DNA of 64,000 nt, from contig JACOST010000008.1 in assembly GCA_016178705.1 (NCBI GenBank), forward strand, positions 102,069 to 166,068, given 5' to 3'. Below the pieces are notes generated by a model. It worked only from the letters and a program-made list of their open reading frames with translations. It was not told the DNA's origin and ran no database searches. Each line of letters begins with the position of its first letter. The stretch's first letter is position 1. Shown here one piece after another: positions 45,041-53,419 of the stretch. Source of the stretch: Deltaproteobacteria bacterium (GTDB lineage: Bacteria; Desulfobacterota; Binatia; HRBIN30; JACQVA1). The position numbers and the translations under genes were made by a program.

Positions 45041-46066
45041 CTACAAGTACTCGCGAATCAGAATCTCGGCGATCGCCACGGCGTTGAGCGCGGCACCCTT
45101 GCGCAGGTTGTCGCCGACGATCCACAGATTGAGCCCATTGTCGACCGACTCGTCATCGCGGATGCGGCCGACGCACGTCGCCTCGCCGCCAATCGTTGTC
45201 ATCGGCGTCGGATACTCGTTGGCGCCTGCGTCGTCTTGCACCAACACCCCAGGCGCACTGCGCAGCACTTCGCGCGCGGCGGCGGCGCTCAGTGGTTCGG
45301 TGGTCTCGACGTTCACCGACTGGCTCAGCCCATAGAAAAGCGGCACTCGCACGCTCGTGGCCGTCATCGCCAGCGCCGGGTCGTCGAGCACGCGCCGCGT
45401 TTGCGCCATCAGATTCTGTTCAGCGCGCGTGTAGCCACCGTCGAGAAACTCGCCGACCTGCGGGAAGACGTTGAAGGCGACACGGTGCGGGAACAGCGCG
45501 CTGACTACGTCCTGTCCGTTGAGCAACGCGACCGTCTGTTGGCTAAGCGCGTCGAGCCCGGCGCGGCCAGCATCCGACACCGGCTGGTAGCTCGACACTA
45601 CGACGCGTTTCAACCCGGCGGCATCGCGCAACGGCTTGAGCACCGCGGCCAGTTGCACCACCGCGGCGTCCGGACTGGCGATGATTCGGCGGCCGGAGTA
45701 CTCGGCAACAACCGCCGCATTGACTTCGGAAACCACCAGCGGCACCGCAACGTCCTCAGCGTACAATCGACTCAAGTCGATGACGACGGCGTCGGCGGCA
45801 GTCGCGCGCCCGGCCCATTCGGCGGTAATTTGTTCCGGCGTCGCGAAAAACACGATGTCGACGCCGTGGAACTCCGCTCGCGCCAGCAGTTCCACGACAA
45901 CCCGCACACTGCCGGCGGACACATCATCGCCCGCCGTTCGTTCGGACGCGTAACAGGTCAGCTCGCCGAGCGGGAACTCGCGTTCTGCGAGCACGGTGAG
46001 GATCTCGGCCCCGACCAAGCCGGTCGCACCCACCACCGCAACGTTGTACGACGCGCGACTCATCAA
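45041..46066 (-). CDS. asd: Aspartate-semialdehyde dehydrogenase
   Basis: N-terminal NAD(P)-binding motif [11 protein letters not shown] with the Asd family core. Confidence 0.85.
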
Positions 46067-47176
46067 GGCGCCAGGTGCTCGCGCACGGCGGCGCCCATCG
46101 CGCTAGTGTTCACCGCGCGCCCGCCCGCCGCCATGATGTCGGGCGTGCGATAGCCGGCGTGCAGCACGCCGGCGACCGCGGTCTCGATCGCCGCGGCCGC
46201 CTGCGGCTGGGCGAGCGAGTAGCGCAGCATCATCGCCACCGAGAGAATCGCCGCCAACGGATTGGCCTTGCCCTGCCCGGCGATGTCGGGGGCGCTGCCA
46301 TGAATCGGTTCGTACAATCCGCGCGGTTGCCCGAGCTGATTGCGGGCTTCGCCGAGCGAAGCAGACGGCAACAGACCGAGCGAACCAGCCAGCATCGAAG
46401 CCTCGTCCGTGAGAATATCGCCGAAGAGATTTTCCGTGGCGATCACGTCGAAGTCGCGCGGGCGTTTGAGTAAGTGCATCGCCATCGCGTCGACAAGCAC
46501 GTCTTCGTAGGCAACGTCGGGATACTCTTTGGCCACCTCGTGCGCCACTTCGCGCCACAGCCGTGACGACGACATCACGTTGGCTTTGTCGACCGAGGTC
46601 ACCTTCTTGCGCCGGGTGCGCGCGAGTTCAAACGCGCTGCGCATCAGCCGCGCGATCTCGCCCTCGGTATAGATCAGGGTATCGATCGCTTCGCGCCCGT
46701 TCGACGTCTGGCGTCGCTCGCTCGGCTTTCCGAAGTAGATGCCACCGGTCAGTTCGCGTACGACAACGAGATCGACGCCGCGCAGAAGGTCGGTTTTCAG
46801 CGGCGCCGCTTCGAGCAACTCCGGGAACACGGTGACCGGGCGCAGATTCGCGAACACCCCGAGTTCCTTGCGCAGGCCGAGCAACCCTTGCTCGGGACGG
46901 ACGGTCGCGTTGGGGTTGTCCCACTTCGGACCGCCAACGGCGCCGAGCAGCACGGCATCACTCGCCGTGGCCAGCGCGCGCGTCACTTCCGGCAGCGCGA
47001 TGCCGTGCGCGTCGATGGCGCAACCGCCGAACATCGCTTCGGCACAGGCCACTGAGAAATTGAACCGCTGCGCACAGTCCTGCAGGACCGCGACGGCTTC
47101 AGTGATCACTTCCGGCCCGATCCCGTCACCGGGCAATACACACACATTCGCGGTCACGAATCCTCCCGATGAAATG
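46063..47176 (-). CDS. leuB: 3-isopropylmalate dehydrogenase
   Basis: [14 protein letters not shown]-terminus and the isocitrate/isopropylmalate dehydrogenase core. GTG 47176 preceded by GGGAGG. Confidence 0.85.
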
Positions 47177-47222
47177 AGCTGGGGAGCGGGGGGGCGAACC
47201 CCGTCTCCCCAGCTCCTTCGAT

Positions 47223-48770
47223 TCACGGTCCACCGCTGCGTTGCTGCTGATAGTGCTGGCGCCGGTACTCCAATTTATTGAGCGCGTTGATGTAGGCGAG
47301 CGCGCTCGCCTGTACGATGTCGCTGTGCGCACCCTGGCCACTGGCGGTGACCCCGTCTTGATGAATCAGGCATGAGACTTCGCCGAGCGCGTCGGTACCG
47401 CCGGTGATCGCCTTCACCGCGTATCGATCAAGTTCCGGCTGCATGCCGGTGATCTGCGCGATCACCTTGTAGCAGGCGTCAACCACCCCATCGCCATCGC
47501 CCTCGCCTTCGCGCTGCTCGCCATCGACGCGCAGCCGCAACTTCGCGTGCGGCAGCGTGCCGCTCAGAGCCGTGACGTTGAGCTCGATCAATTCGAAGCG
47601 ATCCGGCACGCGCACGGTCTCTTCGGTCACGATCGCGACGAGGTCGTCGTCGTAAACGTTCTTCTTCAGGTCGGCGAGCACCTTGAAACGTTCGAACGCC
47701 TTGTTCATGTCGACTTCGTACAACTCGACGCCGAGTTGCTTGAGCCGCTCGGCGAACGCGTGGCGGCCGGAGTGTTTACCCAGCACCAACTTATTGCTGG
47801 AGATGCCGACGTCCTCAGGACGCATGATTTCGTACGTCTGCTTGTCCTTGAGAACGCCGTCCTGGTGAATACCGGCCTCGTGCGCGAAGGCGTTGTCGCC
47901 GACGATCGGTTTATTCGCCGGCACCGTCAGGCCGGTGACCTGGGCGAGCAAGCGGCTGGCCGGATAGATCTGTTCGGTGACGATGTTGGTGCGCACGGTA
48001 TGGAAGAAGTCCTTGCGCGTGGCCAGAGCCATCACCACTTCTTCGAGCGAGGTATTGCCGGCGCGCTCGCCAATGCCGTTGATCGTACACTCGATCTGCC
48101 GCGCGCCGTTGCGGACTGCGGCGAGCGAGTTGGCCACCGCCATGCCGAGGTCGTTGTGGCAGTGCGCGCTCCAGCACACCGTGTCGCCACCCGGCGTGTT
48201 GGCGATGAGGTACTTGAACAGTCCGCCAAATTCTTCGGGCACCGCGTAACCGGTGGTGTCGGGCACGTTGAGCGTCACCGCGCCGCAACGAATCACTTCG
48301 CCGAAGACCTTGACCAAGTAGTCGCGATCCGTGCGTGAGGCGTCTTCAGCCGAGAACTCGACGTAGTCGAGGTGTTTCTTCGCCATTTCGACGGCCCAAC
48401 ACGCCGCGTCGAGCACCTCTTGCTGGCTCATCATGAGTTTTCGCTTGAGATGCAGATCGGAGGTGGCGATGAAGATGTGTATGCCGGGCCGCTTCGCCTT
48501 CTCGACGCTCTTGATCGCTTGCCGGATGTCGGCTTCCTTCGGGCGCGCCAAGCTCAGCACGATCGGCCGCGCCACAGTCTCGGCGACGCGGGCGACCGAA
48601 TCGAAATCTCCCGGCGATGAAACGGCGAAGCCCGCCTCGATCACATCGACGCCGAGCTTTTCGAGCTGCCGTGCGATGACCACCTTCTCTTCGACGTTCA
48701 TCGTCGCCCCGGGCGACTGCTCGCCGTCGCGGAGCGTGGTGTCGAATATCTGCACTACTGCTGGTTCCAT
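47223..48770 (-). CDS. leuA: 2-isopropylmalate synthase
   Basis: [22 protein letters not shown]..., [37 protein letters not shown], plus a C-terminal LeuA-dimer regulatory domain. ATG at 48770. Confidence 0.85.
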
Positions 48771-49660
48771 GGCGCACCCCCTATAGCATCGACTCCGGTG
48801 GGCGGCGACACCCACATCGGGTCGGTCTGAATTGCGTGAGTCATGCGGCCGACCATGCGGCTGGTCGGTGCGACTTCGCCGGCGACGATGCGGGTCGGCA
48901 GAGCCTGGAAGGACTCTGCGCGCACCGTCATCGCCTTGAACACGGCCTCGAACGCGGTGTTACCGCCGCGCGGGCCGAGTCCGTTGATCGTACACTCGAT
49001 CTGGCGCGCTCCGTTGCGCACCGCGGCGAGTGAGTTGGCAACCGCCAGTGACAGATCGTCGTGACAGTGCACGCTCCAGCACACCGTACCGCCGCCCGGC
49101 GTGTGGCCGATGAGGTACTGGATCAGCGCGCCGAATTCATCGGGCAGCGCGATGCCGGCGGTATCGGGGACGTTGACTGTGGTGGCTCCGCAGCGGATCG
49201 CCTCGCCGTAAATTCGTACCAACGCGTCGCGATCCAGTCGCGAGGCGTTGGCCATCGTGAACTCGACCTCGTCGAGTTGCTGCTTGGCATACTCAACCGT
49301 GCGGCAGGCGGTGTCGACGACCTCCTGCCGCGTGCGCACGAGCTGAGCGCTGGAGGCAGCCACGAAGACGTGAACGCCGGGATGCTTTGCCTTGGCGACG
49401 CTGCGCACTGCGTGGTCGATGTCGGACTCAATGGCGCGCGCCAGGCTGAGCACAACCGATTCGCTCACCGCCGCGGCGATCGCCGCGACCGCTTCACCGT
49501 CGCCATCGAACGCTCCCGGAAATCCCACCTCGATGACATCGACGCCCAGTTTCTCAAGCTGACGCGCGACGGCGACCATCTCGGAGACGGACAGAAGAGC
49601 CGACGACGATTGGCCGTCGCGCAAGGTGGTGTCGAGAATCCGAACTCGGTCTGCTTCCAT
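48755..49660 (-). CDS. Truncated LeuA/HMGL-like paralog (catalytic TIM-barrel region only, 301 aa) with substitutions in conserved motifs; possibly a pseudogene
   Basis: MEADRVRILDTTLRDGQSS... (DGQS instead of DGEQ), ...[37 protein letters not shown] (GPRGGN instead of GERAGN). No subdomain or regulatory domain. Some stretches are nearly identical in nucleotide sequence to leuA. Overlaps the leuA start by 16 nt. Confidence 0.55.
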   Translation of the reverse strand: MEADRVRILDTTLRDGQSSSALLSVSEMVAVARQLEKLGVDVIEVGFPGAFDGDGEAVAAIAAAVSESVVLSLARAIESDIDHAVRSVAKAKHPGVHVFVAASSAQLVRTRQEVVDTACRTVEYAKQQLDEVEFTMANASRLDRDALVRIYGEAIRCGATTVNVPDTAGIALPDEFGALIQYLIGHTPGGGTVCWSVHCHDDLSLAVANSLAAVRNGARQIECTINGLGPRGGNTAFEAVFKAMTVRAESFQALPTRIVAGEVAPTSRMVGRMTHAIQTDPMWVSPPTGVDAIGGAPWNQQ

Positions 49661-49710
49661 GGCGCACTCTCCTTCGCCGCGGTGCCGTTGCCGACCCGCT
49701 GCGGGCTATG

Positions 49711-49818
49711 CGACCAAAAGAAAGGGCCACGGGGTGCGCCACCCGTGGCCCTCTAGAAGCAGAAACGCCACGGAGCGGTCATCCCACCCGTGGCGTCTTT
49801 CGGTCGCGTATTGGTAGT
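49711..49818 (-). promoter_or_regulatory. Leucine-operon transcription attenuator: two alternative hairpins; the distal one is a GC-rich stem followed by a U-tract
   Basis: On the minus-strand RNA: acgccacgggugggaugaccgcuccguggcgu (plus 49765-49796), then gggccacggguggcgcaccccguggccc followed by uuucuuuugg (plus 49724-49751 and downstream). Both stems share ccacgggugg, which allows antiterminator pairing. Confidence 0.55.
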
Positions 49819-49905
49819 CTACGCTCCCCCGGACGCAGCGGGTGGGCACGGCAGCAGCAGCCCGAGGAGCAGAAGACCCAATGCGTTGTGCGAGCGAGCG
49901 TTCAT
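49819..49905 (-). CDS. Leucine-rich leader peptide (28 codons, MNARSHNALGLLLLGLLLPCPPAASGGA)
   Basis: Its ATG overlaps the pssA stop (ATGA). It has 7 Leu codons in an 8-codon stretch (ctt ctg ctc ctc ggg ctg ctg ctg) and is followed within 25 nt by the attenuator hairpins and then the leuA-paralog RBS GAAGGAGAG. Confidence 0.5.
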   Translation of the reverse strand: MNARSHNALGLLLLGLLLPCPPAASGGA

Positions 49906-50753
49906 TGCGCACCCTTCGTAGGCGACTCGCTCGATGTTGTCAAGGTGGGATTTTCGACGACCTTGAGCGGATGCCGTCGCCCGCGCGCATGCAACAGCCA
50001 GCGGCCGCGCACAAACAGCGAGCGCGCCGGTCCTGAGAGCGCGAACAGCGTCGAGCCCGCGAATGCCATCCATTGCGGCTCGGCGATGAGCAGGTTGAGC
50101 ACGAGGATCACGAGCACCAGCATCGAGAACGGATGGCGACGGTGCAATTGCAACTCTTTGAAGCTGAAGTATTTCACGTTGCTCACCATCAACGCGGCTA
50201 AGCCGTAGATGACGAGTAACACCAACAGATGCTTGTGGGTGGCGCCGGCGCCGCCGTACTTGTAGTAGAGCAACACAGTCGCCGCGATCACGTCGGCGGC
50301 GGCTGGAATTGGGAGGCCGATGAAGTGGCGCTTCTCGACATTGTCGTACTGCACGTTGAAGCGCGCCAAGCGCAACGCGCCGCAGGTGACGTAGAGCGAT
50401 GCGGCCAGCCAGCCCCAGTTTTGCCACGGCTCGAGTGCCCAGCGGTAGGCGAGAATGCCGGGCGCCACGCCGAAGGCGACGAGATCCGCCAACGAATCGT
50501 ACTCGATGCCGAAGCGGCTGGTGGTGCGCGTCAGGCGCGCGACCCTTCCGTCGAGGATGTCGAAAATCTGCGCCAGCAAAATCGCCAGTGCGGCGAGTTG
50601 GAAATCGCCGTGCAGGCTGGCGATGACCGAGTAGAAACCGGAGAACAATCCGCCGGTGGTGAAGAGATTGGGCAGGATGTAAACACCCTTGCGTAGCGGC
50701 GCGGGCATGCCCCGACCGCCGCGAATGACGCGCACGCGTTCTTTTACTGCCAT
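49902..50753 (-). CDS. pssA: CDP-diacylglycerol--serine O-phosphatidyltransferase
   Basis: CDP-alcohol phosphatidyltransferase motif DILDGRVAR...GIEYDSLADLVAFGVAPG. ATG at 50753. Confidence 0.75.
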   Translation of the reverse strand: MAVKERVRVIRGGRGMPAPLRKGVYILPNLFTTGGLFSGFYSVIASLHGDFQLAALAILLAQIFDILDGRVARLTRTTSRFGIEYDSLADLVAFGVAPGILAYRWALEPWQNWGWLAASLYVTCGALRLARFNVQYDNVEKRHFIGLPIPAAADVIAATVLLYYKYGGAGATHKHLLVLLVIYGLAALMVSNVKYFSFKELQLHRRHPFSMLVLVILVLNLLIAEPQWMAFAGSTLFALSGPARSLFVRGRWLLHARGRRHPLKVVENPTLTTSSESPTKGAQ

Positions 50754-53099: not shown

Positions 53100-53336
53100 T
53101 CAGTGCGATCGATACTTGCCGAGAATCTCCATGATGTGATCCTTGCCGGCGAGCTTGAGCTTCTGGAGGCGTTTCTTTTCGACTTCTTCTTCTGGCGTGA
53201 GGAAGTGTTTGTGCTGGAACGTGGCGAGCTGCTTTTCGAGTACGAGGTGCTCCTCGTAATAGCGGCGCAGCTCAACGTCCTTGTCCAACAGAGTACGGAT
53301 CAACTCTTCTTCATGCTTCTCCATAGTGATCTCCAT
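53100..53336 (-). CDS. DUF465 (YdcH-like) small protein
   Basis: ...LTPEEEVEKKRLQKLKLAGKDHIMEIL matches the DUF465 pattern. Confidence 0.5.
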   Translation of the reverse strand: MEITMEKHEEELIRTLLDKDVELRRYYEEHLVLEKQLATFQHKHFLTPEEEVEKKRLQKLKLAGKDHIMEILGKYRSH

Positions 53337-53419
53337 CAGGCAGGTGGCCGGAAGCTACCGCAGGGCTCGGTCACTGTCAAATTACCCCGATGCGATGAAA
53401 GTGTCACGATTCTAGTGCG

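Follow-up and report, generated by a model that had tools for sequence, protein, structure and literature searches.

The question raised by this locus is how the genes downstream of pssA are controlled, and what the Leu-rich, hairpin-forming region in front of them contributes to that control. We analyzed the 64,000-nucleotide (nt) stretch of contig JACOST010000008.1 from a Deltaproteobacteria bacterium (lineage Binatia), hereafter called the window, in which NCBIfam identifies the minus-strand gene order ilvN-ilvC-psd-pssA followed by leuA'-leuA-leuB-asd, where leuA' is a leuA-like fragment. Because the gene ends overlap or abut, leuA, leuB and asd were taken as one operon 3' of the region in question. 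An earlier note, made from the letters of this DNA and a list of its open reading frames (ORFs), had proposed a leucine attenuator with a leader peptide and alternative hairpins. Our analysis leads us to a similar answer in a different form: the region is very probably a leucine-responsive, ribosome-mediated transcription attenuator of the leuA'-leuA-leuB-asd operon, with a chain of six RNA segments in place of the four that had been pictured.

Leader ORF, RNA segments and proposed mechanism

The leader ORF, which is not annotated in the source genome record, consists of 28 codons and a TAG stop and encodes MNARSHNALGLLLLGLLLPCPPAASGGA, in which LLLLGLLL places seven Leu in eight codons. Its ATG shares bases with the TGA of pssA (ATGA at 49905..49902). 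This Leu run is the sole eight-codon stretch with at least six Leu among the 1959 open frames found in all six frames of the window, and, relative to dinucleotide shuffles, the fold of the 260-nt leader has a z of -5.3; the Leu-rich leader therefore exceeds chance. The first hairpin begins 22 nt after the leader stop (the earlier note had said about 23), and a GC-rich hairpin with its U tract fills 49751..49715, ahead of the ribosome-binding site (RBS) and start of leuA'. The latter hairpin is the strongest terminator-like site within 12 kb. The sequence details given in the earlier note, like its order of the downstream genes, agreed with the sequence, the ORF listing and NCBIfam.

By inspection and folding we defined six segments, regions 0 to 5 (Table 1). 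In the hairpin of regions 0 and 1 (0:1), the Leu run occupies the loop. Each segment has to suit two partners, which is why CCACGGGYGG occurs in both region 2 and region 4, and CCGUGGC in both region 3 and region 5. The RNA from 49848 to the end of region 4 is predicted to fold as 1:2 + 3:4, with the stop-codon hairpin (hairpin S) at the tip of 1:2, and the RNA from 49808 on, which a ribosome at the stop codon would leave free, as 2:3 + 4:5. Both alternative states were thus obtained in folding, and the mutual exclusivity assumed in the earlier note stands; its model was incomplete, since the link to the ribosome through 1:2 and 0:1, the terminator likeness of hairpin 1 and the promoter at the pssA end had been overlooked.

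In the mechanism that we propose, transcription would begin at the promoter in the pssA end, a few nt 5' of the leader AUG. When leucine is replete, the ribosome would reach the stop codon in the 1:2 tip and cover region 1, so that 2:3 and 4:5 would form, each followed by a U-rich tract, and RNA polymerase would terminate. When charged tRNA-Leu is scarce, the ribosome would stall on the Leu run and cover region 0, which would leave region 1 free to pair with region 2 once this is made; 3:4 would then form, neither terminator could do so, and read-through would result. If the leader is not translated at all, 0:1, 2:3 and 4:5 would form, again leading to termination. Hairpin 1 (2:3) would act here as an anti-antiterminator, and 0:1 as the protector hairpin.

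Table 1. Positions of the leader elements and of the genes that follow them in the window
Feature	Position	Strand	Partner, basis or remark
Predicted leuA-operon promoter in the pssA 3' end	49943..49915	minus	Comparison of 34 leaders; -35 TTGACA 49943..49938, -10 TACGAA 49920..49915
Leader ORF	49905..49819	minus	ATG 49905..49903, TAG 49821..49819; pssA TGA 49904..49902
Region 0, ACGCAUUGGGU	49886..49876	minus	Pairs with 3' half of region 1 (49843..49833)
Leu codons of leader	49881..49879 and run 49875..49852	minus	ORF listing
Region 1, CCCACCCG-CU-GCGUC	49846..49832	minus	Inside leader ORF; pairs with region 2
Hairpin S (GCGUA...UACGC)	49824..49806	minus	Contains leader stop codon; apical part of 1:2 helix
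Region 2	49797..49783	minus	5' arm of hairpin 1
Region 3	49774..49765	minus	3' arm of hairpin 1
Hairpin 1 (2:3)	about 49797..49765	minus	13 bp and one bulge; folding, comparison
U-rich tail of hairpin 1, UUUCUGCUUCU	49765 (last paired base) to ~49755	minus	
Region 4	49751..49742	minus	5' arm of T2; alternative partner region 3
Region 5	49733..49724	minus	3' arm of T2
Hairpin 2, T2 (4:5), arms GGGCCACGGG / CCCGUGGCCC	49751..49724	minus	10-13 bp GC stem
U tract UUUCUUUUGG	49723..49715	minus	Directly after hairpin 2
RBS of leuA', AAGGAGAG	49674..49667	minus	Sequence reading
leuA', first regulated gene	49660..48755	minus	ATG at 49660; NCBIfam: 301-aa N-terminal LeuA fragment
leuA (48770..47223), leuB and asd	45041..48770	minus	NCBIfam, gene coordinates

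Conservation of the leader and covariation of the two pairing states

To compare the leader among relatives, one genome per species was scanned with LeuA, which gave 80 loci (designated L001 and so on), mostly from Candidatus Binatia and with 52-97% LeuA identity. We analyzed 34 leaders in detail, aligned those of 27 species with MAFFT, and had 30 species in a covariance-model alignment. According to tblastn mapping, many of the 80 loci have ilvC-psd-pssA, a gap of 230-490 nt and leuA-leuB-asd; in the most distant loci (Nitrospirota and others) the gap between pssA and leuA is just 3-150 nt and holds no leader. A Leu-rich short ORF lies 5' of leuA in about 55 of the 80 loci (for example, MKTNSHNALGLLLLGLLLRCPPGASGGA in L003, MIASHNAPRPSLLLDLLLLGPPGASAGA in L004 and VTARPQIVAGLLLLGLLLPCPSAAPWVV in L009), so the leader ORF first read from the window alone is conserved. 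The three Leu codons before region 1 vary by species (CTGCTGCTG, CTACTGCTG, CTGTTGCTC, CTACTACTT, CTTCTACTT, CTACTTCTT and CTCCTTCTT), and since the changes are synonymous, the amino acid and not the bases is the object of selection. The N-terminus of the peptide is variable and the C-terminal PPGASGGA is conserved. The spacings are fixed in 27 of 27 species at 5 nt between the last Leu codon and region 1 and 10 nt between region 1 and the stop, and region 2 follows the stop after 13-28 nt, in most cases about 20.

A short ORF of this kind might also encode a functional small hydrophobic peptide, for example for the membrane, with the Leu run kept for the function of the peptide and not for sensing of tRNA-Leu. 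The peptide is indeed hydrophobic, its C-terminus is conserved, and the retention of Leu under synonymous change shows only that the ORF is translated. However, the N-terminus varies, the constancy of the C-terminus has its explanation in the RNA, where changes are compensated in region 2, and the peptides of the variant classes described below are quite different, with Leu richness alone in common. The ORF is moreover always found between the promoter and the terminators directly 5' of leuA, with a preference for rare Leu codons, and we consider a function of the peptide itself extremely unlikely.

In the MAFFT alignment of 27 species, the terminator state was 92% paired (helix 2:3, 96.7%, with 4 pairs changed on both sides; helix 4:5, 98.5%, with 5 such pairs), and its covariation score was reached by 0 of 500 shuffles. 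The antiterminator state was 88.7% paired in the same alignment (1:2, 90.6%; 3:4, 96.8%). Region 3, the 3' arm of hairpin 1, accordingly has a conserved second partner in region 4, kept at this level across 27-30 species, as the exclusive pairings claimed from the window had implied. The covariance model was built from the terminator state only, and the antiterminator was counted on the 30-species alignment fitted to it; there, 91.7% of the antiterminator was paired and both partners had changed in 12 pairs; on none of five measures did any of 500 shuffles attain the observed value, and slid controls gave 37-44%. In helix 1:2, pairing was about 90% and both bases had changed in 5 pairs, A-U pairs in the window being replaced by G-C pairs in relatives. 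In hairpin S, 4 of 5 pairs were changed on both sides, a count that leans towards structure because S, unlike 1:2 and 3:4, was part of the covariance model.

Single species illustrate how the registers are maintained together. When the aligned sequences were read by eye, both sides of 1:2 were found to be changed in L012 (GUCCG / CGGAC). In L017, A has become G in regions 2 and 4 and U has become C in region 3, and the U of region 5 is kept in a G-U pair. In the L022 group, CA/UG of the terminator is swapped for UG/CA, with 3:4 kept through G-U pairs. Folding of each species from region 1 to region 4 gave 1:2 + 3:4 in 26 of 27 cases; with region 1 masked, 2:3 + 4:5 was formed in 23 of 27, and in the remaining four the fold was a nested 2:5/3:4 hairpin, likewise with its end at the U tract. 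The nascent leader, from the ATG to region 1, formed the 0:1 hairpin in 20 of 20 species with 12-19 pairs, and shifts in the register of 0:1 co-vary (for example, in L011, L014 and L017). These mask-and-fold results and the constant spacings (5, 10 and about 20 nt) are consistent with a ribosome that chooses the fold, given the footprints that we assumed.

Several other arrangements were considered for the mechanism. With a sliding ribosome mask and equilibrium folding of the full-length leader, the terminator state won at every codon position; since such a test cannot discriminate, we instead folded the RNA that is present before transcription reaches region 5. A direct 1:4 pairing, which leaves hairpin 1 intact, is the minimum free energy (MFE) fold of the window leader when region 5 is absent, and it was kept only as a possible secondary antiterminator; when the alignment was read by eye, it looked weaker in relatives, region 4 varying where region 2 is invariant. 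A duplex of the Leu run and region 1 (~49858..49834) with the stretch before the RBS (49696..49672) was rejected from the mechanism because it is not conserved: its z was -3.2 in the window and -1.9 in L001, significance was reached only in the window and L038, and the mean z was -0.1 over 27 species. The two stretches form a minus-strand inverted repeat that flanks both hairpins and has a 10-bp perfect core (ACCCGCUGCG / CGCAGCGGGU), and the window MFE fold places the Leu codons CUCCU opposite the Shine-Dalgarno (SD) sequence AGGAG. This repeat may be linked to the insertion of leuA'.

We also asked whether the RNA belongs to a described family. A cmscan search of 49400..50200 with E values up to 10 gave no match to the Rfam Leu_leader model (RF00512) or to the T-box model. 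The best score in this interval was 18.7 bits against gathering thresholds of 41-43, and all of these sub-threshold matches were terminator-bearing small RNAs (sRNAs); in the whole window, only two tRNAs matched Rfam at gathering score. These results bear on the idea that the structure senses another signal, as a leucine riboswitch, a T-box-like tRNA sensor or the target of an RNA-binding regulator would, and that the leader ORF is secondary. A protein-binding LEU element has been proposed for actinobacterial leuA in place of classical attenuation (PMC1262725), and in our alignment ACGCAACCGAAGGACGCC, between the stop codon and hairpin 1, is conserved beyond the needs of pairing. Yet no T-box or riboswitch model of Rfam was matched even at E values up to 10, there is no large, conserved, unpaired core like that of a riboswitch, and each conserved segment fits one pairing register. 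In addition, the fixed spacings between the Leu run, region 1 and the stop make sense only with a ribosome reading the ORF. Sensing of another signal is the least improbable of the alternatives considered here, and still very unlikely.

The following points weigh against a ribosome-mediated attenuator. At equilibrium, the full-length leader always favours the terminator state, by about 13-20 kcal/mol; the decision must therefore be kinetic, and antitermination depends entirely on the kinetics that we assume for folding during transcription. From the stop codon, a ribosome would mask no more than the inner part of region 1, with the outer 8 bp at the edge of a standard footprint, and one halted at the final or penultimate Leu codon would already hide some of this region. 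The predicted promoter has a weak -10 (TACGAA), and 9 nt is a large distance if transcription is to begin precisely at the A of AUG. The enrichment of rare Leu codons in the pooled 34 leaders (CUU, 19% of the Leu codons against 5% in flanking genes; CUA, 14% against 2%) speaks for an attenuator, but the sequences are phylogenetically related, such pooled codon and shuffle statistics overstate independence, and the p value of the codon enrichment is therefore only indicative; the Leu codons of the window leader itself are mostly common ones (4 CUG, 2 CUC). Finally, the results of mutating the leuA leader of Actinobacteria were at odds with classical attenuation (PMC1262725), so that a Leu leader alone is no proof of mechanism. 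From the conserved elements, the covariation of both registers and the predicted folds we infer where transcription starts, how the ribosome is positioned, the kinetics, that each of the two hairpins terminates, and that the operon responds to leucine.

Predicted promoter, terminator-like hairpins and distribution of the element

Comparison of the 34 leaders revealed the predicted promoter. TTGAC[AT] was present in 34 of 34, the TA of the -10 was invariant, and the spacer was 17 nt, or 18 nt in one subgroup; the gap between the -10 and the ATG was exactly 9 nt in 20 of 34 leaders, including that of the window, and 7-10 nt in 28 of 34. The motif is also kept where pssA is not upstream (for example, L007-L009, L011, L014 and L017). 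A consensus promoter scan of the locus gave no match because the last base of the -10 is not T, and the promoter was seen through comparison only. The leuA operon would thus have its own promoter, embedded in the end of pssA. As this promoter ends 9 nt 5' of the leader ATG, the leader mRNA is predicted to be essentially leaderless, with a 5' untranslated region of 0-3 nt that would leave no room for an SD sequence. The fixed gap between promoter and AUG hints at leaderless translation in the Binatia lineage; Leu-run leader peptides from leaderless transcripts 5' of leuA have been described in Streptomyces and Corynebacterium (PMC8079986; PMC3890552).

The position of the promoter also bears on a simpler explanation, in which the hairpins are mere intrinsic terminators of the ilvN-ilvC-psd-pssA unit, the Leu-rich ORF is non-regulatory, and leuA is reached by unregulated read-through or from another promoter. 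Hairpins just 3' of pssA would stop upstream transcripts, the leader ATG overlaps the pssA stop, and three loci (L020, L021 and L039) have a terminator only, without a leader, between pssA and leuA. On the other hand, the conserved promoter lies 5' of the terminators, 9 nt from the leader ATG, even in loci where pssA is absent upstream, and neither the conservation of the Leu run nor the covariation in helices 1:2 and 3:4 would follow from a plain terminator. Termination of the upstream unit as the whole function of the hairpins is very unlikely, ranking in probability behind another sensor and ahead of a functional peptide.

Both hairpins of the attenuator resemble terminators. The 12 nt after hairpin 2:3 contain 7-9 U in most species, which equals or exceeds the 5-8 U in the tail after 4:5 in the core group, and with these U-rich tails the two hairpins look like tandem terminators. 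Lineages differ in this respect: two canonical terminators are seen in the L022 group, in L030 a U tail follows just the first hairpin, and L033 and L038 have one after the second hairpin only, as apparently do L018 and L024 judging from the aligned sequences. Hairpin 1 is likely to be a first terminator, T1, or at least a pause site, with 1:2 as its antiterminator, and hairpin 2 would be the back-up terminator, with 3:4 as its antiterminator.

About 40 of the 80 loci gave a sense-strand match to the covariance model, with a single copy per genome locus that in every case lies immediately 5' of leuA. In the window, no motif copies were found beyond the two inside the element and the model gave no second sense-strand copy; its minus-strand matches were reverse-complement echoes of the hairpins and were discarded. 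It is possible, although we would place it somewhat below an even chance, that the element represents an undescribed RNA family of about 40 Binatia species, with a look-alike in Desulfarculaceae, in which one leaderless Leu leader controls two serial intrinsic terminators through a six-segment domino. If so, 1:2 would block terminator 1 and thereby free region 3 to block terminator 2, a fail-safe design in which termination is multiplied at replete leucine at no cost when leucine is scarce, and lineages would differ in the terminator that they keep (T1 only in L030; T2 only in L018, L024, L033 and L038).

Related arrangements were seen outside this group. Other Binatia and Binataceae (L040-L069; for example, L043 3246..3338 and L041 3230..3322) have simpler Leu leaders with one terminator, all with a TTGAC promoter near the ATG. 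The Binataceae-type leader reads M(R)SILLTALLLLGLTKARAEGVVKQV and is followed by ACGCCCCGGGC...GCCCGGGGCGUUUUCUUUU; another leader type ends in ...LLSLSLTSAPLAPAG, and ...EAALLSLSLTSAPLAPAG is followed by CGCCACGGGCGC...CCCCGUGGCGUUUUUGUAU. In L020, L021 and L039, the short gap between pssA and leuA holds just a plain terminator (GGGAGACUCCCGC...GCGGGAGUUUUUGUUUG), with neither a Leu leader nor TTGACA, so the attenuator was lost or never gained in some Binatia-like lineages. In L074 (3103..3310), a metagenome-assembled genome (MAG) of Desulfarculaceae, an Ile/Leu/Val-rich leader (MNQAVMSLQVTLILLLVVEVLLVLILRRDPPPG) lies 5' of leuA. Two canonical terminators follow in tandem, the first of which has a 5' arm that can pair with the 3' end of this leader, and the locus matches the Binatia model weakly, at 35 bits. 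Leaders with tandem terminators may therefore not be confined to Binatia.

In the terminated transcript, the U tract CUUUUGGUC (~49720..49712) can pair with GACCGAAAG (~49805..49797), located 5' of hairpin 1; such pairing would close both hairpins into a three-way junction and may stabilise the short RNA. The GAAGG / CCUUC complementarity was found again in relatives. One could therefore suppose that the terminated leader of about 150-195 nt is mainly a stable, trans-acting sRNA and that the effect in cis on leuA is incidental, the more so as the compact closure of both hairpins could stabilise a short transcript and the weak Rfam similarities are to terminator-bearing sRNAs. The terminator hairpin alone accounts for those scores, however (about 18 bits, with gathering thresholds of 41-43), the element occurs a single time per genome locus and in every case immediately 5' of leuA, and complementarity to a target was neither sought nor seen; a role mainly in trans is the least probable of all the alternatives.

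Binatia are uncultured and known only from metagenomes, and the element extends cis-regulation that can be tested by experiment to this lineage. The comparative set is clean, comprising the promoter, the leaderless start, the Leu run and two covarying folds, and could seed an RNA family model, which in turn could improve the annotation of leuA operons in MAGs from soil and groundwater. The tandem chain and the lineage-specific loss of terminators offer a natural series for attenuators gaining or losing stages.

As for the neighbouring genes, the leuA' protein consists of the HMGL-like catalytic domain only and has about 55-57% identity to the adjacent full LeuA; it has RDGQSS in place of RDGEQS and retains the HCH motif. 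The 3' end of leuA' shares 16 nt with the start of leuA (48770). The gene is present only in the window and in its 97% relative L001, with a ratio of nonsynonymous to synonymous substitution (dN/dS) of 0.20 against 0.06 for leuA, so that it appears constrained but relaxed. L002 has the same RBS and ATGGAAG start followed, as read by eye, by an apparent in-frame extension into leuA, which would suggest that leuA' is a deleted remnant. No ilvB is found 5' of ilvN; upstream lies a 74-aa ORF (53324..53100, minus strand) without a Pfam match, with its own promoter-like site TTGACA-N17-TAGCTT at ~53378..53350, and farther 5' are genes for a TsaD-family protein, an RseP-like M50 protease and CdsA. 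No leader or attenuator was evident before ilvN on the minus strand of 53100..53400.

Comparison with known attenuators

The enterobacterial leuL leader combines an ORF containing Leu codons with a Rho-independent terminator and with alternative hairpins that serve as protector, antiterminator and terminator. The present element is like it in the Leu-run leader with preferred rare codons 5' of leuA, in the alternative hairpins and in the regulatory logic. It differs in that the Leu run is in the 0-1 loop and not within the first stem segment, that there are six segments and two terminator-like hairpins, that the leader has no SD sequence and appears leaderless, that the promoter is inside pssA, and that the host belongs to Binatia and not to Gammaproteobacteria. 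The likeness to E. coli leuL drawn in the earlier note thus held as far as the comparison supports an attenuator, but not as a relationship in sequence or structure, given the lack of a match to the Rfam model even at E values up to 10.

In architecture, the his attenuator of E. coli and Salmonella is the nearer parallel. It is a six-segment chain with A:B, C:D and E:F set against B:C and D:E. Likewise, in the domino described here 0:1, 2:3 and 4:5 would terminate and 1:2 and 3:4 would read through, a ribosome stalled on the regulatory codons would block the first hairpin and flip the chain, and an untranslated chain would terminate. The amino acid and the operon are different, and there is no homology. 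In addition, the last hairpin alone is the terminator of the his attenuator, whereas the middle hairpin (2:3) here also has a U-rich tail in most species.

Leaderless LeuL peptides are known in Actinobacteria 5' of leuA and leuS, including LeuL1 (MRFGLLLLSCRGEGL) of Streptomyces lividans and examples from Corynebacterium (PMC8079986; PMC3890552). They share with the present leader the Leu run, the leaderless transcript, the position 5' of leuA and the high-GC organism. The actinobacterial leuA leaders have no typical terminator, and a LEU pseudoknot with a base stem that pairs the Leu codons with the SD sequence of leuA was described for them (Seliverstov et al. 2005; PMC1262725); in contrast, the element of Binatia has two clear terminators, and pairing of its leader with the stretch before the SD sequence is not conserved among the 27 species. 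In Staphylococcus aureus, a leucine-rich leader peptide attenuates the branched-chain amino acid biosynthesis genes (PMC5794164); that system differs in being from Firmicutes, in preceding a whole ilvBNC-leuABCD operon that is also under CodY, and in its unrelated sequence.

The literature that we searched, outside of which most subscription journals lay (including Vitreschak et al. 2004), held nothing relevant on attenuators of Binatia or on leader-peptide attenuators with tandem terminators. The class of mechanism is a textbook one; its novelty here lies in the RNA family, the host lineage, the predicted leaderless start and what looks like a chain of tandem terminators.

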